Origin: an uncultured Candidatus Saccharibacteria bacterium
Lineage (GTDB): Bacteria > Patescibacteriota > Minisyncoccia > Minisyncoccales > Staskawiczbacteraceae
Assembly: GCA_964475855.1 (NCBI GenBank)
Contig: CAYZAV010000001.1
Location: 143,014-207,013 of the forward strand
Reading direction: 5' to 3'
Length of the DNA stretch: 64,000 nt
The position numbers were made by a program, and so were the translations under genes. Below are positions 1 to 17,443 of the stretch, one piece after another; position 1 is the stretch's first letter, and each line of letters begins with the position of its first letter. The notes under the pieces were generated by a model. That model was given only the letters and a program-made list of their open reading frames with translations. It ran no database searches and had not been told where the DNA came from.

Positions 1-3000
1 TTTCAGGCTCTTTTGCACTTCCCCCATCTTCGTCTTCAACCGCAGATCCAAGTTCATCGCCTTTTCCATCTACTAGCGCAACTTCTGGCTCTTCGGGCGA
101 ATTGTCAGTAGGAAGATTTTCATACTTTTGTTGGTTAACCAATAAACTTTCTATCTTATTAATCAGAACATCCTTTTTGAGAACATTATTAATGTCTTCA
201 AAATATTCTTCAACATCAGGTAATTCTCTACCTTTGGCCGTATCCCTAACAACCCCTCTCCAATATTCTATTTTCTTAACAATATTTTCTACCTTCAAAT
301 CGCCCCTCATCCCTTTTATAATCCTTGCCTTATCTTCATCTCTATTCCGCAAAATTTCGTAAAGTGCCGGAAAGCTACCTGCATTTCCAATGTCAGTTTC
401 CACCTCTGTGTTTAGTTTTTCCCATTTTCTTTGTTCTGCAGCTTCTTCCTGTTGTTGTTGTTCATACTTCTTAGTTCCTTCTGTTTTTCCAAGCAATGTC
501 CATCCTTCTGGGAAAGCCTCGTTCTTAAAATTTTCCCATACAAACCTCGACCAGCGCGCCACTTTTGATTTTAGCTCTTCGTCTTCTTGTTCATCATCTC
601 CCTCCTCTCCTTCGTTAGAATCATCACCATTTTTGCCAACATTTGCCGCGGCGGCCTTTTTGGCATCATTTGACGTTCGTTCAGACGCTAACGGCGATTT
701 TTCTAAAGCACCAGGCTTCGGCCTTCTCGCCTTTTGCCTATCGCTAGCCAACGCCCTCTCTTTTACTTCGTTTTTTAACGCATTCAACTCTTTAAATTCT
801 GCATTAATTTCATCCCACAATCTGCCTTCCACTAACTTATCTTTCTCTGCTTTAAATTGTGCAATTTTTCTTTCAATAGCACTATATTTCGTGCGCAGGT
901 CTGGCCACCCGAACATATCGGTAAACTTATTAATTTCAATCAACATTAACTCCAACTGATTATCAATATCATTTACTGCCTTCGCTTTCTTCTCTACATG
1001 TCGCTGATCTTCTCCGGCAAGATTTATTTTTGGGGAATCCGCACTAGATTCAGCGCTATCAAATGGTCCAGCTAAGTCAAAAGAGCCCGAAGTTAATTCG
1101 CTTGGTTTCGACCCACTCCCACTATCAGAATCAAGACTTAGGTCGAAGTAGCCAGATTCAACTGATGGGATAGGATTATTACTATCTAAACTTAATTCAG
1201 AAGATTGGTTCGGATTGTCTTGGTTTGCGCTAGGATTTTTATCTAAATCTTCTTGGACTGTAAATTCTTCTGGTGGCCCCGGCTCGAAAAACTTTATTAA
1301 CCTATTTAAATTACTATTAATATCCCTATAAATCCATTGATAGGTTGCTGTTTCTGTAAACCCCTCAATAAGCACTCCCTCCTCAAAATCATTAAGATTC
1401 TTAACAATCCCATCGTATATTGGGGTTAGGTATGTTTTATCTATTTCTATCGTATCGCCTTTTTTCTTTGGATTATGAATTCTTACACGTTTTTCCGCTG
1501 GAATGGCATCAATTCTACTATTCATAAGCAGAAGACTATCTCGCATAGCCTTAATAGCAGCTTCCCTTGTCTCCCCCTTTTTCTTAACCCCATCTTCTGT
1601 ATCCAACTCAACTTCACTACCATTTTTTGGATCTTTTGGCGCTATCGGTTTTGACCCATCAGGTTTTTGCAACTCTGGCCTAGGACCAGTACGTTTTGCG
1701 TAAGCGGTTTTACCATTTCCATCTACATATTTAACCACTTGACTATATGGTGCAATAATAGGCTTGACACCTTCTTTATTAAATTCAAGAGAAAGTTCGC
1801 CAGAAGTGCTCATTTGTTCTCTTGCTATTCTTTCATCAAAATTACCGACCTCATCTCTTACAATTACCGAGTCTGCGCTATCTTCAAATTTAGCACTGCC
1901 AACAGCAATCGTCGGAACGCTAATTTCATCTTCCGTTGGCTCGCCCTTTTTCCATTCCCTGAATTCTATTTTTCCAATTTTCTGCTTTATAATTTTTTGG
2001 TTGCCATCTTTATTAAGCACAGGATTTCCATCCATATCAAAAACCCCAAACTCTAGTTCCGTTTCATTCAGTTTGCTTGCTTTAATAGTAGAAGCAAAAT
2101 TTCTAAGTTGCACATATTGCTGTACCAGATTACCTTCGGCATCTTTAGAAAACCGGTACGTTCGCCTACCAGCTACTCTTTTTAATAGCTTATTGATCCT
2201 TGCCTCCCACTCTTCCTTATTTTCCTTTTTTTCTTTCTTTAGCACCTCTCCCAGATTCTTTTTTTCAGGGCCTAATTCTTCCGTTTCATCGCCCTCTTTT
2301 TTCTCCCCCTTTTCAGTAGTTTTTAGATCCCCTGCAATTGGCTTATCCATCTTAAAGGTATCTCCATTCTCACCGAAAACTGCAGGAACTTTCACTGTAG
2401 TTAAATCCTCGCCAGATTTAGGGATTTCAGGTTGTTCTAAATGTTGGTTATAAAAATCAAATTTTTTATCCCAATAGCTATATATTTTTTCCCAACGTTC
2501 TTCAAAATTTCCTATATCTCCAACTTCAAAGCCCGGATCAAAAGATTCCACATCGAAGGCCCGCAACACAGCAATATCATGGTTTAAACCTTCAACGTCT
2601 TGAGGTTTTAGATTTTTCTTTTCAACAAGCGCGGTACACAAAGCTTCTAATCTGATGACTGAAATTTCCACATAACGACGGAATCGTTCCAGCTCTTCCC
2701 TCTCCTTTTCTGCATTCACCTCTCGCGCCGCAGCAATTTCAGGTAACTTTTCCAGTTCTTCCTGTGTCCGCCTCAAAGCTGCTAATTCATTGTCAATATT
2801 TTCGTCGGTTGCTACTTGTTCACCACCTGCAGTAGCAATATTTGGCGCAACTTCAGAGCCCTTGACCACCCCTTCATCTGGAGGAATAATTTGGTCAAAC
2901 AATTTATCTACGAGCTCTTGCGTTTTTGGATCAACAATTTCCGCTTCATTTGTTTGATCAACTTCTACATATCCACCTTCCTCCGCGGAAATTTCCTTCA

Positions 3001-3658
3001 TTTTTTCTAGTTCAGATTCCTTTTTTTCACCAGATGAGTAATAATCCAGTGGCTTCGACGACTTGATTGACTCTTCAATTGAAGTCCTTTTTGCTGCTTT
3101 TCTACTCTCAATAATGGCATATAGCCTATCTTGAGCTTTTTGCAACCGGTCTACCTTTTCTTTAAAATGGGAATTATCTAAATTACCCTTTTTATACTGC
3201 CTTCTTAGTTCCGTAATCCTATCTCCATATGCATCTTTTACGATCTTCTTTTTTGCTATCTTGGCCGCTTCAGGTAAACCTAAAATACCCCTTGCCTCTT
3301 TTTCCGATATTAAAACATCTTCTACTGTTTCTTGCACCCCCTTTCCTGTTTCCGATTCAATATCTTCAGTCGCCGGTTTAGGATTTTTTTCTCGCGAAAG
3401 AGTATCGGGCGCCCCCATATTCTGAAGAGTATCCTTTAGTTCGGTAACAGTTCCGGCGTATATATTATCCGCCGGGAGTTCAGAATTTCCTTGTGGAACG
3501 GGCAGTGCCGACTCTAAAGGTGCAACCGTATCAGGTGCTATCATAGCCTTAATCGTATCCCCTAGCTCAGCAGCATTTTTTACAACCAAATTATCTGCTG
3601 GGACTAAAGAATCTTCAGGTTTTTCTGGAATGTTATTTTCTGCTCGTTTTTCAGCCAT
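1..3658 (-). CDS. Large acidic hypothetical protein, N-terminus complete, C-terminus cut by window edge (at least 1219 codons)
   Basis: ATG at 3658-3656. Hand translation of the minus strand reaches position 2 with no stop. It is absent from the ORF track because it has no stop in the window. The + strand ORFs listed at 102-3010 are S/F/L-rich shadows of it. The product is E/K/D-rich with no TM segment or signal peptide seen, and no family was recognised. Confidence 0.8.
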   Translation of the reverse strand, partial: MAEKRAENNIPEKPEDSLVPADNLVVKNAAELGDTIKAMIAPDTVAPLESALPVPQGNSELPADNIYAGTVTELKDTLQNMGAPDTLSREKNPKPATEDIESETGKGVQETVEDVLISEKEARGILGLPEAAKIAKKKIVKDAYGDRITELRRQYKKGNLDNSHFKEKVDRLQKAQDRLYAIIESRKAAKRTSIEESIKSSKPLDYYSSGEKKESELEKMKEISAEEGGYVEVDQTNEAEIVDPKTQELVDKLFDQIIPPDEGVVKGSEVAPNIATAGGEQVATDENIDNELAALRRTQEELEKLPEIAAAREVNAEKEREELERFRRYVEISVIRLEALCTALVEKKNLKPQDVEGLNHDIAVLRAFDVESFDPGFEVGDIGNFEERWEKIYSYWDKKFDFYNQHLEQPEIPKSGEDLTTVKVPAVFGENGDTFKMDKPIAGDLKTTEKGEKKEGDETEELGPEKKNLGEVLKKEKKENKEEWEARINKLLKRVAGRRTYRFSKDAEGNLVQQYVQLRNFASTIKASKLNETELEFGVFDMDGNPVLNKDGNQKIIKQKIGKIEFREWKKGEPTEDEISVPTIAVGSAKFEDSADSVIVRDEVGNFDERIAREQMSTSGELSLEFNKEGVKPIIAPYSQVVKYVDGNGKTAYAKRTGPRPELQKPDGSKPIAPKDPKNGSEVELDTEDGVKKKGETREAAIKAMRDSLLLMNSRIDAIPAEKRVRIHNPKKKGDTIEIDKTYLTPIYDGIVKNLNDFEEGVLIEGFTETATYQWIYRDINSNLNRLIKFFEPGPPEEFTVQEDLDKNPSANQDNPNQSSELSLDSNNPIPSVESGYFDLSLDSDSGSGSKPSELTSGSFDLAGPFDSAESSADSPKINLAGEDQRHVEKKAKAVNDIDNQLELMLIEINKFTDMFGWPDLRTKYSAIERKIAQFKAEKDKLVEGRLWDEINAEFKELNALKNEVKERALASDRQKARRPKPGALEKSPLASERTSNDAKKAAAANVGKNGDDSNEGEEGDDEQEDEELKSKVARWSRFVWENFKNEAFPEGWTLLGKTEGTKKYEQQQQEEAAEQRKWEKLNTEVETDIGNAGSFPALYEILRNRDEDKARIIKGMRGDLKVENIVKKIEYWRGVVRDTAKGRELPDVEEYFEDINNVLKKDVLINKIESLLVNQQKYENLPTDNSPEEPEVALVDGKGDELGSAVEDEDGGSAKEPE

Positions 3659-3737
3659 GCAATAAATACCTTTAAATTAAATAATTTTACCACGTATATA
3701 AAAACAATACCAAGTACCGTGCCAAACAAACTAACTA

Positions 3738-3766
3738 TTGACAATGCTATATATAAATGATATATA
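3738..3766 (+). promoter_or_regulatory. Sigma70-type promoter, TTGACA-17-TATATA
   Basis: TTGACA at 3738-3743, 17-nt spacer, TATATA at 3761-3766. It lies about 40 nt upstream of the GTG at 3808. Confidence 0.6.
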
Positions 3767-3807
3767 TAAAACATCGCCTCAGCACCTTACTTTTTGGAGG
3801 AATTCCC

Positions 3808-4296
3808 GTGGCCGACGATCAGGTTAAGAAAATTAAAGAGACTGAAGAGTTCAAGATTGGAGGAGCAGTAGACGACGAGCAAAACAAAGACATCAGCAAC
3901 CTCCAATTGCAAATGAAGGAGCAAATGGAAGCTACGCAGGCCTTGGCCAAACAAGTCCAAGATTTGTCTGAAGCCGTCGCCGAGATGGGAAATTTCCGGA
4001 ACGCAATCACCCAGCTCTCAGACCAGCGACAAGCAGACGCTGTCAACATCCAGCGACGCGAAGAGGCCTCACTCAAGGCAGCACATGCGCTTGCAGAACT
4101 GACCAGGGTGATCAAAGAAAGAACTCTGCACTTCAAACAAGTCTTTACCAACGGATTGACTCCTTTGGCGCTGACCAACGAGACCACGGTCAATGGATCT
4201 CAAACGGTACTACCCCCACCAGAATCAATTCTAGTGCTAGAAGACGCCGACGGGGAAGTTCCTGTCACTCAAAGTAACGAAGCAAACAACGCATAG
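3808..4296 (+). CDS. Hypothetical coiled-coil-like protein (162 aa)
   Basis: GTG at 3808 is preceded by GGAGG (3796-3800) with a 7-nt spacing, in frame with track ORF 3757..4296. The upstream ATG at 3757 falls inside the promoter, so it is rejected. Q/E/A-rich; no family recognised. Confidence 0.6.
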   Translation: MADDQVKKIKETEEFKIGGAVDDEQNKDISNLQLQMKEQMEATQALAKQVQDLSEAVAEMGNFRNAITQLSDQRQADAVNIQRREEASLKAAHALAELTRVIKERTLHFKQVFTNGLTPLALTNETTVNGSQTVLPPPESILVLEDADGEVPVTQSNEANNA

Positions 4297-4744: not shown

Positions 4745-5122
4745 TTAATATGACTGCAGGGCGGGATTTAGCACTCTTTTCGGTTTTAAATACGTGCTCC
4801 TAAAATTGACTATTAATCCTAATTCTAAATTACTTCCCGAAAGATACCTTTGCATTTGGAAATAATCTTCTTTAGTAATAAATTTTTTTGCCTTCACATC
4901 AATGATAATCTTGTCATCAATAAGAAAATCAAACCTATTTCCCTTCACTGGTGCATCTGGAATTTCAAACTCTCTTTTATAGGTAATTTGTTTTTCTTTG
5001 AGCACCAATTCCAAAGCATCCGCATATTGCTTTTCACGCAAAAACCGGCCGTGCTTATTTTGGATATCGAAACAAATCCCTGTTAATTCATATGATAATT
5101 GTGCGTGCAATATTCGGGTCAT
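4745..5122 (-). CDS. GxxExxY-family protein (PD-(D/E)XK nuclease fold)
   Basis: 125 aa. GRFLREKQY, DFLIDD...IDVK and LGLIVNF match the family pattern as I recall it (TIGR04256-like). Confidence 0.7.
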   Translation of the reverse strand: MTRILHAQLSYELTGICFDIQNKHGRFLREKQYADALELVLKEKQITYKREFEIPDAPVKGNRFDFLIDDKIIIDVKAKKFITKEDYFQMQRYLSGSNLELGLIVNFRSTYLKPKRVLNPALQSY

Positions 5123-6093: not shown

Positions 6094-6530
6094 GTTATAA
6101 AGTTTGTAAAGTTATAAAGTTCATAAAGTCCTGTGCCATAATCTTATAAAGTTTTTATTAAGCCTGAAATCATCCGAGATATTTCCTTAGACAAAGAATT
6201 TATTTTTTCAAATTCTTCTCTTGAAACATAATTTAAGTCTACTGCAGTATATGACATTGATCTTACCTCTGAACAAGAACCTTTGGCAATATACAAAAAT
6301 CTAATAAACTCTTTATTTCCCATTCTTTCGAATCCTTCTGCGATATTATTACCAACACTAACTGTTGCCCTTTTGATTTGGTCACAAAAACTAAAATCTC
6401 TGTTATTTTTAAATAACGCATATATTAGTACTGCCAATTGCCTGCTTTTTTGCCAAGCAACAATATCTTCAAATTTTTCGAATTTCATTTTAGAACTTTA
6501 TAACTTTACAAACTTTATGAACTTTATAAC
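6094..6530. mobile_element. IR-bounded cassette B carrying a four-helix-bundle gene
   Basis: Flanks 6094-6130 and 6493-6530 are built from the same 8-11-nt units (GTTATAAAGTT, TGTAAAGTT, ATAAAGTT, CATAAAGT) in inverted orientation with permuted order. The cassette occupies the whole mutM-holA spacer. Confidence 0.6.
6144..6488 (-). CDS. Four-helix-bundle protein (23S rRNA intervening-sequence protein family)
   Basis: FEDIVAWQKS...NNIAEGFER...KGSCSEV matches the family pattern. Confidence 0.85.
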   Translation of the reverse strand: MKFEKFEDIVAWQKSRQLAVLIYALFKNNRDFSFCDQIKRATVSVGNNIAEGFERMGNKEFIRFLYIAKGSCSEVRSMSYTAVDLNYVSREEFEKINSLSKEISRMISGLIKTL

Positions 6531-7405
6531 TATAGCACCTGACATTTCGGGCAATAGAATGCGCTTCGGGCGGCGATTACTTTGCGCACAATAATCGCTT
6601 TACACCGGGAACAATTCTTGCCTTCCATTTGATATGCTTTTTTATGACCTTCGAAATTGCCCTTATTACCATCAACATCACGGTAATCAGAAAAGCTGTC
6701 TCCACCAAAATCTATGCCAGCGTTGAGTACTTTTTTAATATATTTATAGAGCAACTGTAATTCTTGCCTACTTAAATTTTCTGCCCGCTTTTCAGGGTGG
6801 AGACGCGCCCACCATAGCGCCTCGCTGGCATAAATATTACCAATGCCGGCAATCACAAATGGATCCATTATGACTTGCTTTATCTTTCCGCGTTTTTTGG
6901 AAACAATAGCCGCAAACTTTTCAAACGTGAAATTATTTTCCAGCGGTTCAGGCCCTATTTTCTTAAATTCCGGCGACACCAACAGTTCGTCCGTTTTCCA
7001 TAATTCAACCTTGGCAAATTTGCGCATATCAGAAAGCGCAATCATGTCGCCATTATCCAAAAAGAATATTATGTGCAAAAATCCATTTATCCGTTCGCGC
7101 AACGGGCCTTCGTCAGCCGACACCCATGTTCCATGCTTCATGTTCCATGTTCCATGAAGAAAGTGTCCCGTCATTTTCATATGCACTAACAAAGAATATC
7201 CGTCTGACAATTCAAATATGACATTTTTCGCCCGACGCCAAACGCGGATAATTTTCTTGCCCTTCAATTCTTTTTTAAACTGCGTAAACGGCCGCGGCCG
7301 TTTCACCATCTTTTCCCAATCGCACCACACATCAACAAAGGCCCGGTTAAGGACCTTTGCTTGTAACCCATTGACGGTGGTTTGTACTTCAGGTAGTTCC
7401 GGCAT
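6530..7405 (-). CDS. mutM: Formamidopyrimidine-DNA glycosylase
   Basis: MPELPEV N-terminus (catalytic Pro2) and a C-terminal zinc finger CSRC...CPKC. The track start at 7513 adds 36 spurious residues. Confidence 0.9.
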   Translation of the reverse strand: MPELPEVQTTVNGLQAKVLNRAFVDVWCDWEKMVKRPRPFTQFKKELKGKKIIRVWRRAKNVIFELSDGYSLLVHMKMTGHFLHGTWNMKHGTWVSADEGPLRERINGFLHIIFFLDNGDMIALSDMRKFAKVELWKTDELLVSPEFKKIGPEPLENNFTFEKFAAIVSKKRGKIKQVIMDPFVIAGIGNIYASEALWWARLHPEKRAENLSRQELQLLYKYIKKVLNAGIDFGGDSFSDYRDVDGNKGNFEGHKKAYQMEGKNCSRCKAIIVRKVIAARSAFYCPKCQVL

Positions 7406-8024
7406 CTTCCCTTGGCTCGCCCAAGTTTTCAGTAGGGGCGGTTTCCACGCTTTTCGGCTTTCGTTTGCGCTCCACCTTTTTCTCCAACTGTTCCCGAAGC
7501 TCCACAAGTTCACCCCTCAACCCCGCCGTTTCCGTGTCGCGGTTTTTTGCATCCTGTTGGAATTTCTCCACACTTAAGGCTAGGCGCTCAAGCTCCATGG
7601 TCCTGTTTTTGATTTTTTGCTCTAGAGCTTCGATAGTTTCCTCCAAGGCCCCGGTCCTTGCCTTTACTTTCATATCAACCGACCGCTCCAGGGTCTGGGT
7701 TTCGTTTTTGCTTTCTTCAAATTCTTCAGCAATTTTGTTGAACACCCTGGCCAATTCCCCAATCTCATCCTTGCTTTCAGAATAAAACCGGCTTTTTAAA
7801 TCCCCTTTACTTAAACCATCGGCACGCTGCAACAACTTCTTGATCGGCACGGCAAAGTTTTGGCCCGTGGCAAATCCGAATAAAAAAATGTACACAATTA
7901 ACAAGCCAAGAATAATATAAAAATTAATATTGAGCGTTTCATAATTTAAGGCGATAAACGCCACGATAATGAAAAGCCCCGCAATGATAATAGGATACGC
8001 AATTTTAAAAGATAGCTTAGGCAT
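7389..8024 (-). CDS. Membrane protein with two TM segments, a HAMP domain and a coiled coil, no output domain
   Basis: Two N-terminal hydrophobic segments, a HAMP-like PIKKLLQRADGLSKGDL...DEIGELARVFNKIAEE, then an E/K-rich coil. Its 3' end overlaps the mutM start by 17 nt. Confidence 0.6.
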   Translation of the reverse strand: MPKLSFKIAYPIIIAGLFIIVAFIALNYETLNINFYIILGLLIVYIFLFGFATGQNFAVPIKKLLQRADGLSKGDLKSRFYSESKDEIGELARVFNKIAEEFEESKNETQTLERSVDMKVKARTGALEETIEALEQKIKNRTMELERLALSVEKFQQDAKNRDTETAGLRGELVELREQLEKKVERKRKPKSVETAPTENLGEPREDAGTT

Positions 8025-8046: not shown

Positions 8047-8931
8047 TTAAAAAACTATAGTGGACAAACGGTCGATTAAGGTGAAAAATCCCAATTCTTT
8101 AAACATCGTTTCCATTTTGGCTTTGTCAAAATTACCGAATTTGCAGGCTTCCAGATTAAAATCCATGTCCACATTTTTATCAGTGGTTACCAATTGTAAT
8201 GAAAGTAGCGCCTTGTCTTTGTTGGCTTTTAGCGCCTCTTTTACCTTAGGCTTAAGTACAGCCGTATCCGTTGCAATTTCAGCATACAAATTTTCAATCG
8301 TTCCGTAATTATTAATAATCTCTGCAGCTGTTGTTTTCCCAATGCCCGGCACGCCGGGAATATTATCTGAATTATCACCCGTCAGTGCCTTGAATTCATT
8401 CATCTGGTCAGGTCGCACCCCAAACCTTTCTATTACGCGCGGGGCGTCGTATATGACGCTCTCTTTTATTCCCTTGCCCATGGTATAGACATTTATATTT
8501 TCTTCCACTAATTGCAGGTTGTCCAAATCCCCGCTTAAGATAAATACTTTTGCCCCACCTTTTGCTTTTTGGGAAATGGTGGCAATTAGGTCGTCAGCCT
8601 CAAATCCCTCTTTTTCAAACATGGGAATGCCAAATACTTCAAGCACCTGTTTCATCATGGGCATCTGGGAAGCGATGCCATCGGGCATTTTCGCGCGGCC
8701 GGCTTTGTATTCCGCAAATTGTTCATGCCGGAAAGTTGGTTTTTTGGTGTCAAAACAGGCAACGATATGAGTAGCCTCAACATCCTTGATGGCTTTAAAC
8801 AAAATAAGTAAAAATCCATACACCGCGTTGGTTAGTTGGCCGTTTTTATTGGACAACGGCGGCAAAGCATGGAACGCCCTATATAATAGAGAGTGGCCGT
8901 CAATGATAATAAGACGCTTAACTTGATTCAT
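8047..8931 (-). CDS. Stand-alone 5'-3' exonuclease (Pol I N-terminal / FEN-like)
   Basis: IIIDGHSLLYRAFHA, GDNSDNIPGVPGIGKTTA. Confidence 0.85.
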   Translation of the reverse strand: MNQVKRLIIIDGHSLLYRAFHALPPLSNKNGQLTNAVYGFLLILFKAIKDVEATHIVACFDTKKPTFRHEQFAEYKAGRAKMPDGIASQMPMMKQVLEVFGIPMFEKEGFEADDLIATISQKAKGGAKVFILSGDLDNLQLVEENINVYTMGKGIKESVIYDAPRVIERFGVRPDQMNEFKALTGDNSDNIPGVPGIGKTTAAEIINNYGTIENLYAEIATDTAVLKPKVKEALKANKDKALLSLQLVTTDKNVDMDFNLEACKFGNFDKAKMETMFKELGFFTLIDRLSTIVF

Positions 8932-11115: not shown

Positions 11116-12438
11116 ATGGAAGAAACAGCACCAAAAAAACTATTGGGCTCCGTCACTATCTCTCCGGAAATTGCCGACGATGTCCAAAAAAATATCAGCA
11201 ACATCGCCCAATTTTCCAAAAAAATAGAGGAGTACGCCGCCCAAAGCACTACCAACTTATTGGACATAATTTTATTTGGCGCCATCCATTTACAAGTTTC
11301 CGATATCCATATTGAGCCGCAAAATGACAGTATCCGGTTGCGCACGCGCATTGATGGCGTATTGCAGGATACCGCCCAATTTGACACCGCTATTTACCAT
11401 AATTTATTAAGCAGGATAAAACTGCTTAGCAAGATAAAACTTAATATTACCGATAAACCACAAGACGGCCGGTTTTCCATTGCTGTTGGCGATGCGCTGG
11501 TTGAAATAAGAACCTCGAACTTACCGGCCGAATACGGCGAAGCAGTGGTAATGCGGGTACTTAACCCAAAAAACTTCATGGAACTTGAGGCGCTTGGCTT
11601 GAGAAAAGATTTATACGAAGTATTTGAAAAAGAGGTTAAAAAACCCAATGGTATGATTGTGGTAACTGGGCCAACAGGATCGGGAAAAACCACCACCCTG
11701 TACGCGTTTTTAATGAAAATCCAAAACCCGGAAATGAAAATTGTGACTATTGAAGATCCGATTGAATACCACCTAAAAGGCGTTTCACAAACCCAGGTTT
11801 CCCCCGAAAAAGGCTATACATTTTCTGAAGGGTTGCGCTCCATTGTCCGCCAAGACCCGGATGTTATTTTAATCGGTGAAATCCGTGATTTAGAAACAGC
11901 CAAAATTGCCCTGCAAGCTTCACTGACCGGGCATTTGGTGTTGTCCACCCTGCATACCAATGATGCTGCCGGCACTATTCCCCGCCTAGTTGATTTGGGC
12001 GAACAGCCTTCAAGCATCGCCCCGGCCCTGAAAATGGCGGTTGGCCAGCGACTGGTCAGGAAAGTATGTAAAAAATGTTCCGTGTTGACCGCGCCAAGCA
12101 AAGAAGAATTAGCTGAAATAAAAAAAGGGCTTGCCAAGTTACCCAAGCACATTGAGCTTCCCGCTGATTTGGCAAAAGTAAAAATCGCCAAAGCTTCAGA
12201 AAAAGGTTGCGAAGATTGCAACTTCACCGGATATCGCGGCCGCAAAGGGTTGTATGAATTATTCTTAGTTGATGATGAGATGGAACGCTTTATTTTAACC
12301 AACCCGCCCGTTTCAAAAATAAAAGAATTGCTGGTAAAAAAAGGCATGGTCACCCTGTGGCAATCCGGTTTAATTGAAGTGGTGGAGGGAAACACGACTA
12401 TGGAAGAGGTGAAGAAGGTAGTAGAAGCGGACGAGTAA
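11116..12438 (+). CDS. GspE/PilB-family secretion ATPase
   Basis: Walker A GPTGSGKTTT, ILIGEIRD, LSTLHTNDA, and a tetracysteine CKKC...CEDC. Confidence 0.85.
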   Translation: MEETAPKKLLGSVTISPEIADDVQKNISNIAQFSKKIEEYAAQSTTNLLDIILFGAIHLQVSDIHIEPQNDSIRLRTRIDGVLQDTAQFDTAIYHNLLSRIKLLSKIKLNITDKPQDGRFSIAVGDALVEIRTSNLPAEYGEAVVMRVLNPKNFMELEALGLRKDLYEVFEKEVKKPNGMIVVTGPTGSGKTTTLYAFLMKIQNPEMKIVTIEDPIEYHLKGVSQTQVSPEKGYTFSEGLRSIVRQDPDVILIGEIRDLETAKIALQASLTGHLVLSTLHTNDAAGTIPRLVDLGEQPSSIAPALKMAVGQRLVRKVCKKCSVLTAPSKEELAEIKKGLAKLPKHIELPADLAKVKIAKASEKGCEDCNFTGYRGRKGLYELFLVDDEMERFILTNPPVSKIKELLVKKGMVTLWQSGLIEVVEGNTTMEEVKKVVEADE

Positions 12439-12449
12439 TTTTATAACAA

Positions 12450-12587
12450 AAAAACAGCTCGGGAGTTGGAGGAGCATGCTATCTGGGATAGCAGTAAAGG
12501 TTTTCCTGAGGAATAGTTGAGCCGGAGCAAAACTATCCATAAACTAAAGAAAACCCATATAAGACCTCCAACTCCTGAGCTGTTTTT
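12450..12587 (+). other. 138-nt structured element closed by a 23-bp inverted repeat
   Basis: 12450-12472 equals the reverse complement of 12565-12587 at 22/23 positions. Inner hairpins lie at 12477-12493 and 12510-12538. The element ends in TTTTT. Confidence 0.5.
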
Positions 12588-12633
12588 ATCCCTTATTTAC
12601 CCAATATCTTCATTATATCACCCCATACTTTAT

Positions 12634-13644
12634 ATGTCAAGCATATTAGGCAAAAATACGCTTCCCTCCGAAGAATTGCTAGATTCGGCCCTGCGGCCAA
12701 AAACCTGGTCAGACTACGTCGGTCAGGAAAATATCAAGGAAAATTTGAAGGTTATTTTAACCGCCGCCAAGCAACGCAACCAATCCCCGGACCATTTGTT
12801 GTTATATGGCAACTCCGGGCTTGGCAAAACCACCCTGGCCTATTTAGTTGCTTTAGAAATGGGCAAGAAAATCCGCATTACCACCGGCCCGGCTATTGAA
12901 CGGGCAGGAGACTTGGCCGCCATTTTAACTAATTTACAAGAAGGCGACGTGTTGTTTCTGGACGAAATTCACCGCCTCCACAAAACGGTGGAAGAATACA
13001 TTTACCCGGCCATGGAGGAGTATAAACTGAATTTGATTTTAGGCAAAGGGCCGATGGCGCGGACCATGGAATTAAAACTCCCGCACTTTACCCTGATTGG
13101 TGCCACTACGCGGCCGGGATTACTCTCCGCCCCACTGCGAAACCGTTTTGGCGCCACCTTCCAGTTGAATTTTTACAAACCCGAAGACATTGAAAAAATT
13201 GTCCTGCGTTCTGCCAGGATTTTGGGCGTGCAAATTAATTCCGATGCCGTCCAGATTATTGCCCGACGGTCTCGCTTCACACCTCGCGTTGCCAACCGGC
13301 TGATAAAACGGGTGCGGGATTTTGCTCAAGTGGAAGGGCTGGATGTGATTACTAAAGAAATTACCGAACACGCCTTAACTTCCCTGGAAGTTGACCACGC
13401 GGGCCTCGAGCCGGGCGACATAAAAATACTGCAGGCTATGATTGAAAAATTTGACGGCGGGCCAGTTGGACTGCAATCATTGGCGGCCGCCGCACTGGAA
13501 GAAGAAGACACTATTTTAGACATGTACGAACCTTATTTAATGCAATGCGGATTTATTGAACGCACCCCAAAAGGCCGCGTGGCTTCACGCTTGGCCTATG
13601 AACATTTAGGAGTACCATACAATAAACAGCATAATTTAATATAA
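12634..13644 (+). CDS. ruvB: Holliday junction helicase RuvB
   Basis: [39 protein letters not shown]. The track start at 12517 runs through the structured element. Confidence 0.9.
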
Positions 13645-13656
13645 AACACTTTGTAA

Positions 13657-13688
13657 TAAAAAACCGCCTAATTTAATGGCGGTTTTTC
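13657..13688. terminator. Bidirectional terminator between ruvB and pyk
   Basis: AAAAAACCGCC-loop-GGCGGTTTTT. Confidence 0.75.
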
Positions 13689-13702
13689 GTTACAGCGAAA
13701 GA

Positions 13703-14725
13703 CTAGCTCGCCCAGTAGTTCATTTTATTGTAGTATTCGTCAGCCCGGTCAATGATTTTTTTCATCGTCACTACACATTCAAGGGGAAATTTTCCCACTG
13801 ATGTTTCATCAGAAAGCATCAGAGTATCCGCTCCGTCAAACACGGCATTAGCCACATCGGTTACTTCGGCATAGGTTGGATGCGCTTTTTCCACCATAGA
13901 AAGCATCATCTGGGTAGCAACCATGGCAGATTTTTTGTGCCAGTGGGCGTGCCTGATCAGTTCTTTTTGTAAAATAGGTAATTCCTCTAAAGGCATTTCA
14001 ATTCCCAGATCCCCGCGGGCGATCATGATACCATCAGATTCCCGGATAATTTTATCAATAGAAGGCATGGCAGTTCCACGCTCAATTTTGGCAATAATCT
14101 TGATATTTGGCCCGATGATTTTGCGCAGCTTGATAATATCCTGTTCGCTCTGCACAAACGAAAGTCCCATGTAGTCAACACCGACAGAAGCTCCAAATGC
14201 CGCGTCCTTCTCATCTTTTGGCGTCAAACCCCCGCTAGACAAATTGGTCTTTGGAAGGTTGATTCCCTTTTTACTGCTCAATAATCCCCCGCGTTCAACG
14301 GTGGCATAAATTTTTCCATTTTCGATTTTGGTAATAGCTAATTCAATAGCACCGTTTACCAAATAAAACGGGTGGCCGATTTCTAAGTCGTCGATTAACT
14401 CCTTGCTGTCAATCGGAATACAGGTTTTATCGCCAGCTTCACACTTGTCAAAAGAAAAGGTATATTCTTCACCCTCTTTCATGTGGATCTCTTCAGGAAG
14501 AACGCCCACGCGGATCCTTGGCCCACATAAATCTTGGAACACTTTTACATCCAAACCTGTTTCTTCTTTGATTTTTTTGACGTTTTCTTTAAGTTCCAAT
14601 AATTGCTCATTGGAGGCGTGTGCAAAATTAAGCCGGGCAGTATCCATACCAGCCAACGCCATTTTTTTTAACAACTCATAATCTCCTGACCGCTGTCCCA
14701 CATTTGCTACAATTTTTGGATTCAT
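13703..14725 (-). CDS. pyk: Pyruvate kinase, short form (A+B domains only)
   Basis: ARLNFAHAS, IIAKIE, IMIARGDLGIEMP. It is 340 aa versus about 470 aa for canonical enzymes. Confidence 0.85.
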   Translation of the reverse strand: MNPKIVANVGQRSGDYELLKKMALAGMDTARLNFAHASNEQLLELKENVKKIKEETGLDVKVFQDLCGPRIRVGVLPEEIHMKEGEEYTFSFDKCEAGDKTCIPIDSKELIDDLEIGHPFYLVNGAIELAITKIENGKIYATVERGGLLSSKKGINLPKTNLSSGGLTPKDEKDAAFGASVGVDYMGLSFVQSEQDIIKLRKIIGPNIKIIAKIERGTAMPSIDKIIRESDGIMIARGDLGIEMPLEELPILQKELIRHAHWHKKSAMVATQMMLSMVEKAHPTYAEVTDVANAVFDGADTLMLSDETSVGKFPLECVVTMKKIIDRADEYYNKMNYWAS

Positions 14726-14898
14726 AAGATATTAACCTTTTAATATATAAGGGGATTATACGGTATAGTGAGTAAAATTACAATACACCACGTCTGTATA
14801 ATTTGACAAATAGCAAGATACCACTGCAACACACAACTACCACTTGTGGCGATTTTTTTCTGTATTGGATATAATTAAAGAAGTCATAGAAATTCTTT

Positions 14899-16092
14899 AT
14901 GAAAAAAGCATTTATTATTATTGTCGCCATTATTGCCACTGGGTGTTTTAGTCCGTTTGTCAGTGCCGCTAACCCTTCCGATGTGGTTATCAATGAAATC
15001 GCCTGGATGGGAACGGCCGACTCCGCCAATGACGAGTGGCTGGAGTTAAAAAATAGTACCAATGAAGTCATAAAATTGGACAGTTGGCTACTTAAAACTA
15101 CGGACGGGAAAATGAAATTATATTTAACCGGCCAAATTGCGCCCCATGGCTTTTATCTGCTTGAGCGTACGGATGACAGTTCTGTTCCCGAAGTTAAAGC
15201 TGATTTTATATACACCGGCGCATTAAGTAATACCGGGCAATCACTGGAACTATACCAAAATTCAAGCACCCTGATTGACAGCATCAGCTTTTCCTCAAAG
15301 TGGCCGGCCGGAGACAACGCCACCAAAAAAACTATGGAAAAAGTTGGGAATGATTGGCAAACAAGCAAGGAACCCGGAGGAACTCCTGGAATGGAAAATC
15401 AGAAATCACAAGCACCAAATCCAAAACAAACCCAAAATACAAATGACCAAAAATTTAAAACTGAACCGGAAATAATAATATCGTATCCAGTAGGGATTAT
15501 TATCAATGAAGTATTACCCTCTCCGGAGGGTGCGGATGAAACTAATGAGTGGATTGAATTTAAAAACACCACTGCCACATCTATTAATATTTCCGGCTGG
15601 AAGTTACAAGATGCCGACGGCACCAAAACGGCATATGTGTTTCCTGAAAATTCAATCGTGTCAGCTAATGGATATTTGGTGGCAAAACGGCCCCAAACTA
15701 ATATTACGCTCAACAACGACCAGGATTCATTGCAATTAGTATTTCCCAACGGCATCATGGCTGATAGCATGTCCTATGGCAAAGCCAGTGCTAACCGATC
15801 ATACAATAAAACTGCTTCACAATGGCAATGGAGTAGTACTCAAACTCCAGGAAAAGCCAATGTAATTACCTTGGCAGCCGCCAAAAAAACATTGCCAAGC
15901 GCTAAAAAATCTGATATCAACAGTACTGTAGTAGCAAATACGTCCGTCGCGCCCAATCCATTTTTGGCCGAATTACCAAAAGAAACGGTAACCACCTCAA
16001 ACCCCTGGATGATATTTTTTATTGCTTTGGGGTTGGCTATTGTTTCAGCCGCCGCCATACTTTATATAAAATTATTTAGAAAAGCGAATTAA
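14899..16092 (+). CDS. Secreted protein with two lamin-tail domains and a C-terminal TM anchor
   Basis: Signal peptide, two copies of the I(I/V)NE(I/V)...NEW(L/I)E(L/F)KN motif, and a C-terminal hydrophobic helix followed by FRKAN. Confidence 0.7.
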   Translation: MKKAFIIIVAIIATGCFSPFVSAANPSDVVINEIAWMGTADSANDEWLELKNSTNEVIKLDSWLLKTTDGKMKLYLTGQIAPHGFYLLERTDDSSVPEVKADFIYTGALSNTGQSLELYQNSSTLIDSISFSSKWPAGDNATKKTMEKVGNDWQTSKEPGGTPGMENQKSQAPNPKQTQNTNDQKFKTEPEIIISYPVGIIINEVLPSPEGADETNEWIEFKNTTATSINISGWKLQDADGTKTAYVFPENSIVSANGYLVAKRPQTNITLNNDQDSLQLVFPNGIMADSMSYGKASANRSYNKTASQWQWSSTQTPGKANVITLAAAKKTLPSAKKSDINSTVVANTSVAPNPFLAELPKETVTTSNPWMIFFIALGLAIVSAAAILYIKLFRKAN

Positions 16093-16199
16093 GGTATCCC
16101 GCGAAAAAATAAGGTATCCAGCGGAAATCAGGCCGCAAGGTATACGATATAATTAAGCCTGATTTCCGAGGTGATTTTATTCGCCTCGCTCATAAAATC

Positions 16200-16919
16200 A
16201 TGTCTGGCCATAGTCATGCAAAAACCGTCGCGGCTACCAAAAACGCCAACGACGCCAAAAAGGGGAAGATCTTTTCCAAAATGGGAAGGGTAATCACCAT
16301 TGCCGCCAAACAGGGTGGCGGGGATCCAACTAGTAATATCCAACTCAAAGCCGCCATTGAAAAAGCCAAGGAGTTTAATATGCCCAAGGAAAATATTGAA
16401 CGGGCTATAAAAAAAGGTACGGGCGAGCTGGTGGGCGAAAATTTGGAAGAAGTTTCTTTTGAGGCATTGGGATTGGGTGGTATTGCCATTATTATTGAAG
16501 GTATTACGGATAATAAAAACCGGACGCTCGGGGAAATAAAAAGCATTGTAGGCCAGCACTATGCAAAAATGGCGGGCGAAGGAGCAGTGCGTTGGATGTT
16601 TGAAAGAAAAGGGTTGATAATCCTACTCATAGGAAATAAACCGCAAGAAGAGCTGGAATCAGCCGCCATAGAAGCCGGCGCCGATGATGTAAAACTGATA
16701 GGTGACATACTACAGATATATACCAAGCCTGAAGATTTTGAAGCGGTTAAAAAATCCTTGCAAGAAAAACAACTGACCATTGATTCTGCTTCAATATTAT
16801 GGGCACCAAAAGAAGAAATTACCCTGGAAGAAAAAGATACATTAAAAATCCAAGCATTATTTGAAGCGCTAGATGAAAACGACGCCATCCAGGATATATA
16901 TTCGAATTTAAAAAATTAA
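16200..16919 (+). CDS. yebC: YebC/PmpR-family transcriptional regulator
   Basis: MSGHSHAKTVAATKNANDAKKGKIFSK... Confidence 0.9.
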   Translation: MSGHSHAKTVAATKNANDAKKGKIFSKMGRVITIAAKQGGGDPTSNIQLKAAIEKAKEFNMPKENIERAIKKGTGELVGENLEEVSFEALGLGGIAIIIEGITDNKNRTLGEIKSIVGQHYAKMAGEGAVRWMFERKGLIILLIGNKPQEELESAAIEAGADDVKLIGDILQIYTKPEDFEAVKKSLQEKQLTIDSASILWAPKEEITLEEKDTLKIQALFEALDENDAIQDIYSNLKN

Positions 16920-17443
16920 TGATCATCCTTGGAATTGACCCAGGAACGGCTATTACCGGCTATGGTGTTATCCAAACCAAGCAGCCAAAACACATAGCCC
17001 AAGACCGGAACGAAAAACCCACCGTGATTGATTTTGGCTGTATTACTACCCTATCAACCAGCCTGCCCGGAGACCGCCTGGTCAGCATCCACGAGGAAAT
17101 AAACAAATTGATAGACAAGCACAGCCCCGACATTATTTCCGTGGAAAGTTTGTTCTTTTTTAAAAACCTAAAAACCGCTATGCCCGTCAGTCAGGCTAAG
17201 GGAGTAATTTTATTCACCGCCGCCAAAAAAAACATCCCCATTGTGGAATTTACGCCACTGCAAGTAAAAATGACGGTAGTGGGATATGGCCGGGCTGAAA
17301 AAAAACAGGTACAGGCGATGACCAAGCAGTTACTGGATTTGAGTCGGTTTGATGAAAAACAAAAAAGCCGAAAAAAAGATGATGCGTCCGATGCTTTGGG
17401 CATTGCCCTTTGTGCCATGTTTTCACATACGCTTAAGTTATAA
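16919..17443 (+). CDS. ruvC: Crossover junction endodeoxyribonuclease RuvC
   Basis: MIILGIDPGTAITGYGVI...; the ATG overlaps the yebC stop. Confidence 0.85.
   Translation: MIILGIDPGTAITGYGVIQTKQPKHIAQDRNEKPTVIDFGCITTLSTSLPGDRLVSIHEEINKLIDKHSPDIISVESLFFFKNLKTAMPVSQAKGVILFTAAKKNIPIVEFTPLQVKMTVVGYGRAEKKQVQAMTKQLLDLSRFDEKQKSRKKDDASDALGIALCAMFSHTLKL

Follow-up and report, generated by a model that had tools for sequence, protein, structure and literature searches.

A giant acidic gene at the edge of the window

We analysed a stretch of 64,000 nucleotides (henceforth the window) from contig CAYZAV010000001.1 of assembly GCA_964475855.1 (positions 143,014 to 207,013 of the forward strand), whose left edge is occupied on the minus strand by a giant gene encoding an acidic protein, henceforth P0001. 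The UvrB encoded beside this gene shares 70-76% identity with its counterparts in Candidatus Staskawiczbacteria metagenome-assembled genomes, and by this marker the source is a Staskawiczbacteria-like member of the Candidate Phyla Radiation (CPR; Patescibacteria/Parcubacteria), in keeping with the reduced genome assumed in an earlier note on this DNA. That note had described the gene as a giant orphan and had nominated its product for a host-interaction or cytoskeleton-like role. The gene and its one conserved domain lie at the following positions:

1 to 3658, minus strand: first 1219 codons of the 1425-codon gene for P0001 (stop-free translation; identical product on five contigs; positive coding score throughout)
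1634 to 2290, minus strand: conserved core domain, "core A", residues 457-675 of P0001, the sole part common to its relatives (phmmer, hmmsearch, alignments A1 and A2, AlphaFold2 model)

Direct translation of the minus strand from the ATG at 3658 (the product begins MAEKRAENN) gives 1219 codons without a stop down to position 2. The frame is missing from a program-made listing of open reading frames (ORFs) because it runs past the window edge, and over positions 102-3010 that listing holds short plus-strand ORFs only. All frames were scored with a codon log-likelihood whose training set was 22 window genes with an assigned family. The called frame scored +0.27 bits per codon, as against -0.33 and -0.98 for the two other frames of its strand and -0.23 to -0.40 for the opposite strand. 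The score stayed above zero in all 200-codon segments of the giant gene (+0.13 to +0.36), a range comparable to that of neighbouring genes such as holA and fpg (+0.22 to +0.38), and synonymous codon usage correlated with that of the reference genes (r=0.75). Since these coding statistics favour the called minus frame, the plus-strand ORFs at 102-3010 are shadows, as the earlier note had proposed. We conclude that the minus-strand ORF codes for protein and is one real giant gene, running from the ATG at 3658 to the window edge and beyond. Third-position C amounts to 9% in the giant gene (2-3658, minus strand) versus 23% in the window reference genes, at least partly because codons for glutamate and lysine, which end in A or G, are in excess; composition and codon bias are not separated in this figure.

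Extending the sequence leftwards, as the note had recommended, completes the gene: the C-terminal 206 residues lie past the left edge of the window and are supplied by other contigs with an identical gene. The full product has 1425 residues, 160 kDa and an isoelectric point (pI) of 4.8, and it is present identically on five public contigs (NCBI, ENA and Logan; the longest is 345 kb). The description of the protein as acidic and rich in glutamate, lysine and aspartate is borne out by its composition (E 12.8%, K 10.4%, D 7.9%, pI 4.84). With a grand average of hydropathy (GRAVY) of -0.84 it is the most hydrophilic protein in the window, the others averaging -0.10 +/- 0.32. The GC content of the gene, 39.9%, is ordinary for the window.

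P0001 is the largest known member of a rare family

P0001 had no match in Pfam, NCBIfam, PHROGs, PADLOC or the PDB sequences, and a literature search found nothing on large proteins of Staskawiczbacteria. In a word-indexed homology search the full-length query returned itself alone, and queries with the core or the core alignment returned nothing. As the latter missed even P0001 itself, these nulls were discounted and superseded by an exhaustive search: phmmer against 1.84 billion representatives returned eight matches besides P0001, of which seven are genuine (P0002-P0005 and P0007-P0009, E-values from 1e-16 to 2e-5), while P0006 proved to be a repeat artefact and was excluded. All seven genuine relatives match P0001 solely over residues ~440-695. 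In a set of 80 uvrB loci, phmmer and jackhmmer added the proteins of L011 and L008, and a profile of the core added those of L012, L005 and L004. A metagenome scan with the same profile recovered only L088 and L089, whose ORFs resemble copies of P0005 and of the L011 protein, respectively. The profile scores P0001, which is one of its building sequences, at 5.7e-71, and independent members at 3.5e-18 to 3.8e-14.

The core aligned with a mean column identity of 40% over ten sequences (alignment A1). Its invariant positions are P10, K13, L15, G55, Y61, L64, L81, F83 and G195, numbered in a 222-residue fragment that starts at P0001 residue 455. The core motifs are GPEKKNL, G-[RK]-R-x-Y-x-F, REWKKxEPT and G-K-x-AYA-x-RT-x-x-RP, and across the family they take the forms P-x-x-K-x-L, G-[RK]-R-x-Y-x-F, W-K-x-x-E-P and G-x-x-A-Y-A-x-R-T-x-x-R-P. 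P0001 has both hallmarks of the family, the core motifs and a location between rpsT and uvrB (see below). The core-A family is thus real yet rare, with about 13 distinct members, and P0001 is the largest known member of this small, lineage-restricted family of positional orthologs. The label of orphan therefore needs qualifying: P0001 has almost no homologs, but about 200 residues of it (457-675) are common to the family.

These data also bear on whether the frame lacks a function or is decaying, or arose as a chimera in assembly. P0001 is a singleton at both 90% and 50% clustering, and much of it is of low complexity, as might be expected of such an artefact. Against this, a frame of 4.3 kb stays free of stops in a genome of 40% GC and has gene-like codon statistics throughout, the same product occurs in independent assemblies, and the core is conserved, with invariant residues, in ~13 syntenic orthologs. 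We regard decay or chimerism as very improbable.

Core A lacks detectable structural relatives

An AlphaFold2 model of the core built from eight sequences reached a mean predicted local distance difference test (pLDDT) of 76 and a predicted template-modelling score of 0.63. In this model, two N-terminal helices are followed by a subdomain of five strands, a loop of low confidence and a second subdomain of six strands. A fold search of this kind had been suggested in the earlier note, and it brought no significant relative: with Foldseek, the core model matched no entry of PDB or BFVD at E<0.01, and template-modelling (TM) scores did not exceed 0.22. Core A thus has no detectable sequence or structural relatives in any library searched.

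The top Foldseek matches, all non-significant (E>=0.05, probability <=0.41, TM<=0.21), were tandem Tudor, Spindlin, Agenet and SAWADEE domains and ribosomal protein eS4, and a profile search of the PDB with the core gave eS8, again without significance (E=0.049). Below the significance threshold, these weak matches suggest that the predicted subdomains may be SH3-like barrels. P0001 might then be a nucleic-acid- or ribosome-associated protein, its core forming paired SH3/Tudor/KOW-like small barrels and its charged arms acting as chaperone-like elements or spacers. The likeness to tandem Tudor-type barrels lies in the prediction of two small all-beta subdomains, and the setting of the gene would suit such a role, as it adjoins rpsT within a DNA replication and repair block (holA, fpg, the 5'-3' exonuclease gene, uvrB, ruvA and ruvB). 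However, the core shares neither sequence similarity nor a demonstrated aromatic cage with those barrels, the structural matches fall short of significance and the neighbours are not co-transcribed with the giant gene. Core charge was rejected as a hint of a nucleic-acid ligand, since the cores of different members have net charges anywhere between -5 and +12 and are not consistently basic. We consider association with nucleic acids or ribosomes unlikely.

Replacement or extreme divergence is concentrated at the rpsT-uvrB slot

The genes for P0003, P0004, P0005, P0007 and P0008 show the same arrangement as that for P0001, holA-(PDDEXK_3)-rpsT(-)-gene(+)-uvrB(-)-ruvA. Indeed, every relative with retrievable context sits between rpsT and uvrB and, in the uvrB loci, is convergent with uvrB, so that the synteny check proposed in the earlier note gave a positive answer. 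The slot is also filled where core A is absent: most Staskawiczbacteria loci have, convergent with uvrB, a gene whose product is likewise E/K-rich (E 12-18%, K 11-18%) and 390-1586 residues long.

In at least 23 loci the slot protein carries a different conserved helical module of about 280 residues, "core B", which has no match in Pfam. The gene in question lies at the following positions:

About 12000-17000 of each locus, gene convergent with uvrB, encoding a core-B protein: L006, L007, L009, L013, L015, L016, L018-L020 and L024-L026
About 12000-17000 of each locus, gene convergent with uvrB, encoding a core-B protein: L028, L030, L033, L035-L038, L041, L042, L066 and L079

Core-B proteins share with P0001 the slot, the orientation, the E/K-richness and the variable length, but their helical module is unrelated to core A. 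A link between the two cores was rejected on an hhalign probability of 0.1%, and they co-occur in no locus. The one possible link is a weak core-B-like stretch in P0003 (domain E 2e-5, full-sequence E 0.29), which was gone after one iteration. Iterations 4-5 of the core-B profile were left out, as the profile had by then drifted into Fpg.

A third type of occupant is found in L003, the nearest UvrB neighbour of the source genome. Its slot protein (L003:12476-15802, minus strand; 1109 residues, E/K-rich) has neither core A nor core B and carries an N-terminal DnaJ domain (Pfam E 1.3e-13), which reads APD where HPD is expected. The same protein also has an HExxH-like motif, HENSH, and a hydrophobic segment. 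This occupant raises the possibility that P0001 is a DnaK-recruiting, J-protein-like adaptor: the two proteins share the slot and a large, E/K-rich nature, and residues 118-185 of P0001 show a superficially J-like pattern together with a predicted helical hairpin. Yet Pfam DnaJ (PF00226) matches neither P0001 nor any other core-A member, and it misses the P0001 segment (residues 105-195) and the like segments of five relatives even at E<=10. Smith-Waterman comparison with the L003 J domain, the sole J domain among the analysed sequences, from which no local profile could be built, gave z=0.9 for P0001 and at most 1.2 across 13 members. The HPD motif is absent from P0001, where the corresponding loop reads KKGNLD, and even the L003 domain has APD in its place. 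A J-like domain at residues 118-185 was rejected on the Pfam null, the z-scores and the missing HPD, and we hold a J-protein role to be scarcely probable.

In a neighbour-joining tree of UvrB, calculated without bootstrap support, all core-A carriers fall into one subclade, in which core-B, J-type and unclassified slot proteins occur as well, while core B dominates in the sister clade and the outgroups. We conclude that the rpsT-uvrB slot is a hotspot at which genes are replaced or diverge extremely, and this turnover is the most unusual observation of the analysis.

P0001 resembles beads on a string

A charge-hydropathy scan and a single-sequence AlphaFold2 model of full-length P0001 concur on a beads-on-a-string layout, in which a disordered N-terminus with a repeat pair precedes four helical regions (residues 104-198, 286-407, 883-976 and 1025-1174) and the beta core, joined by acidic or S/D/N-rich linkers. 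The full-length model (pLDDT 41) served solely to map helices. Outside core A, the features are:

3524 to 3604, minus strand: N-terminal repeat, copy 1, residues 19-45, VPADNLVVKNAAELGDTIKAMIAPDTV (local alignment versus shuffles, z=13)
3398 to 3478, minus strand: N-terminal repeat, copy 2, residues 61-87, LPADNIYAGTVTELKDTLQNMGAPDTL (local alignment versus shuffles, z=13)
3065 to 3349, minus strand: predicted helical region, residues 104-198, with a hairpin at residues ~129-198 that the single-sequence model predicts best (pLDDT 69-82 over residues 140-180)
2438 to 2803, minus strand: predicted helical region, residues 286-407, with an aromatic-rich end, WEKIYSYWDKKFDFY (low-confidence helix map; composition scan)
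1295 to 1567, minus strand: predicted mixed alpha/beta region, residues 698-788, after a P/K-rich linker (low-confidence model; composition scan)
1019 to 1291, minus strand: S/D/N/P-rich region, residues 790-880, predicted disordered (charge-hydropathy scan; no secondary structure, pLDDT ~30)
731 to 1012, minus strand: predicted three-helix region, residues 883-976, holding the sole heptad-like segment, residues 882-918 (AlphaFold2 pLDDT 51-76; heptad scan)
587 to 730, minus strand: acidic linker, residues 977-1024, before the Trp-rich region (same scans as for that region)
137 to 586, minus strand: predicted helical, Trp-rich region, residues 1025-1174 (composition scan, single-sequence AlphaFold2 model and motif scan)

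The tandem N-terminal repeat of about 27 residues described in the earlier note is real: the pair scores 69 by Smith-Waterman where shuffled sequences average 18.3 +/- 3.9 (z=13) and is identical at 13 of 27 residues and 50 of 81 nucleotides. Copy 1 lies where the note had placed it, but copy 2 was given as 3401-3481 and is displaced by three nucleotides, its correct position being 3398-3478. A blastp self-comparison found no further internal repeats in P0001.

The note had also found no transmembrane segment, signal peptide or recognisable catalytic motif, and our scans agree. By hydropathy alone, P0001 has no transmembrane helix (highest 19-residue Kyte-Doolittle mean 0.92) and no signal peptide, the N-terminus MAEKRAENNIPEKPEDS being hydrophilic, and a motif scan found no HPD, HExxH, CxxC, LPxTG or RTX (GGxGxD) motif. 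A lone G-x4-G-K-T string resembling a Walker A motif, GWTLLGKT (window 482-505, minus strand; residues 1052-1059), has no NTPase family or fold around it and is probably due to chance.

A large, E/K-rich protein that is mostly helical outside its core could be a coiled-coil cytoskeletal filament of the crescentin, FilP or Mycoplasma HMW2 type, all of which are likewise large, charged and rich in helix. P0001, however, lacks the long heptad rod of those proteins, and its helices are short and interrupted. Our coiled-coil test, which was home-made rather than COILS or Marcoil, found one heptad-like segment of 37 residues, which 11 of 200 shuffles equalled or beat. The longest stretch free of proline and glycine spans 45 residues, and the predicted helices, of at most 42 residues, are split by disordered linkers. 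The cytoskeleton-like role envisaged in the earlier note fails this heptad test if taken to mean a coiled-coil filament, a reading that we consider decidedly improbable; in the looser sense of a scaffold it is our best guess, for reasons set out below.

The flanks of the core diverge and acquire different modules

Outside the core, P0001 resembles no other member: in an all-versus-all phmmer comparison with the core masked, the sole match was between P0004 and P0007, and alignment of P0001 with its closest core relative gave z ~0. Even where the cores are 69% identical, as in P0004 and the L008 protein, the flanks share only islands (z ~6). The flanks thus diverge far faster than the core. Around the core everything is highly charged (E/K/D-rich), with short bundles of helices and disordered acidic linkers between them, and even close relatives have these parts exchanged or altered past recognition.

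Several relatives carry recognisable modules in these flanks. P0008 (L082:8001-10340, plus strand) is a core-A ortholog fused to a PP2C-type Ser/Thr phosphatase (residues 366-595, E 4e-11) and ends in a K/R-rich tail. This PP2C is the only enzymatic domain met in the family, and a Pfam scan found no such domain (PF00481) in P0001. P0005 and the L011 protein contain several CxxC zinc ribbons, and glycine-rich hydrophobic segments occur in P0004 and in the L011 and L004 proteins and, more weakly, in P0003. These segments have the appearance of hairpins, and a hairpin would keep its two flanks on one side of a membrane.

Zinc ribbons and PP2C are typically cytoplasmic modules. Because P0001 has neither signal peptide nor transmembrane segment and its relatives are fused to such modules, we infer that the protein is probably cytoplasmic. 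This bears on the view, raised in the earlier note, that P0001 interacts with a host: it might be an exported or surface protein acting on host or phage, and the turnover of the slot would then reflect diversifying selection at the interface between episymbiont and host, or between cell and phage. CPR bacteria are thought to be episymbionts, sister genomes fill the slot with non-homologous E/K-rich proteins over the whole size range given above, and flanks that outpace the core in divergence would fit such selection. Against it, a signal peptide is found by hydropathy in none of 13 family members, the motif scan of P0001 was negative for the surface-anchoring and secretion types LPxTG and RTX, the modules of the relatives are of cytoplasmic type, and P0001 matches no phage (PHROGs) or defence (PADLOC) model. 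The host interaction proposed in the note finds no support in these results, and we judge an exported interface protein unlikely.

The giant gene is a single-gene transcription unit

In the extended locus of the source genome, L001, the giant gene is preceded by a divergent 162-residue orphan gene and rpsT, and followed by a 43-residue ORF, the convergent uvrB, ruvA and a Mur ligase gene. Since its flanks consist of one divergent and one convergent gene, the giant gene has no operon partner; it is a complete single-gene transcription unit. One promoter-like site lies upstream:

3684 to 3713, minus strand: promoter-like TTGGTA-18-(TG)TAAAAT (TGnTAAAAT), ending 26 nucleotides upstream of the ATG (consensus scan; one such site is the chance expectation here)

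The position of this site is plausible, and we claim nothing more for it. An AAAGG Shine-Dalgarno-like element lies about 11 nucleotides upstream of the start.

The divergent gene (window 3757-4296, plus strand; called as 162 residues from ~3808) is small and hydrophilic. It has homologs in 0 of 88 other loci, its best family match (T2SSF, E=0.0099) lies below the cut-off, and it was rejected as a conserved partner on the lack of homologs; it constitutes a second orphan adjoining the giant gene. The 43-residue ORF (L001:14320-14451, plus strand), just past the stop of the giant gene and outside the window, has no family match.

Further along, a PDDEXK_3/GxxExxY protein and a "23S rRNA intervening-sequence" four-helix-bundle protein are encoded on either side of holA (window 4745-5122 and 6144-6488, both minus strand). 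In L086 the four-helix-bundle gene lies between uvrB and ruvA instead, and the PDDEXK_3 gene is absent there, which suggests that the small genes change place. A 211-residue protein (7389-8024, minus strand) combines a HAMP domain with a coiled-coil-like tail, without a kinase or other output domain; the 3' end of its gene runs into the fpg ORF if the latter is taken at its longest (from the GTG at 7513), the start called for fpg lying further in. The next gene (8047-8931, minus strand) encodes the stand-alone 5'-3' exonuclease of 294 residues, whose match to DNA polymerase I is confined to the N-terminal part of the latter; no polymerase domain is adjacent. The window also encodes a PilB/GspE-type ATPase.

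A possible cytoplasmic scaffold

The reading we prefer, and hold tentatively, makes P0001 a cytoplasmic scaffold or adaptor of modular build, in which the core binds a partner that is conserved like itself while the charged arms evolve freely. The core would dock onto one conserved cellular partner; the variable charged arms would act as spacers, keep the protein soluble and bear attachments specific to a lineage. In relatives such attachments could be the membrane hairpin, the zinc ribbons or the PP2C phosphatase, none of which is present in P0001. What the analysis shows is a real gene with its family, synteny and domain boundaries, a conserved core between unconstrained flanks, fusions of cytoplasmic type in orthologs, and no signals of export, membrane insertion or coiled coil. 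Where the protein resides, that its core docks and that it has a partner are deductions, and so is the scaffold role as a whole.

Several points weigh against this proposal. The gene has no operon partners whose function could be borrowed. The full-length model is poor (pLDDT 41), that of the core was built on a shallow alignment of eight sequences, and the absence of export signals and transmembrane segments was judged by hydropathy, not by a dedicated predictor. Finally, the extreme turnover of the slot fits conflict-driven evolution equally well as a housekeeping scaffold. Taken further, the slot could be a dedicated hypervariable site at which giant, E/K-rich, non-homologous proteins of the core-A, core-B, J-domain and other types swap over short evolutionary distances, driven by host or phage conflict or by compatibility; core A would then be a hitherto unseen fold serving as the one fixed docking element, and P0001 the largest allele of a new, fast-evolving class of identity or interface determinants instead of a housekeeping scaffold. 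We find this extension doubtful.

Among known systems, the polar hubs of the HubP/FimV type come closest to a scaffold of this kind in architecture, and in architecture only. Like them, P0001 exceeds 1000 residues, has a low pI and long acidic low-complexity regions and is modular, and some of its relatives appear membrane-anchored. It differs in having no LysM domain, N-terminal transmembrane segment, FimV C-terminal or TPR-like motif, nor any Pfam or NCBIfam match, and in having no acidic tandem repeats beyond one 27-residue pair.

Hypothetical proteins that are large, charged and specific to a lineage are frequent in CPR genomes. New here are the delimitation of a core domain, its strict confinement to one genomic address and the finding that unrelated cores alternate there, at rpsT-uvrB. 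CPR genomes are about 1 Mb in size, so a gene of 4.3 kb that belongs to no known family is a sizeable investment and unlikely to be neutral. The core of ~200 residues can now be defined for expression, crystallisation and use as bait, and rpsT-uvrB offers a fixed address at which to find the family. Should no partner be found, the core of P0001 would be one more well-delimited domain of unknown function. If one is identified, it could bring to light a cell-biology module specific to this lineage, in organisms without most of the known systems for cytoskeleton and polarity.

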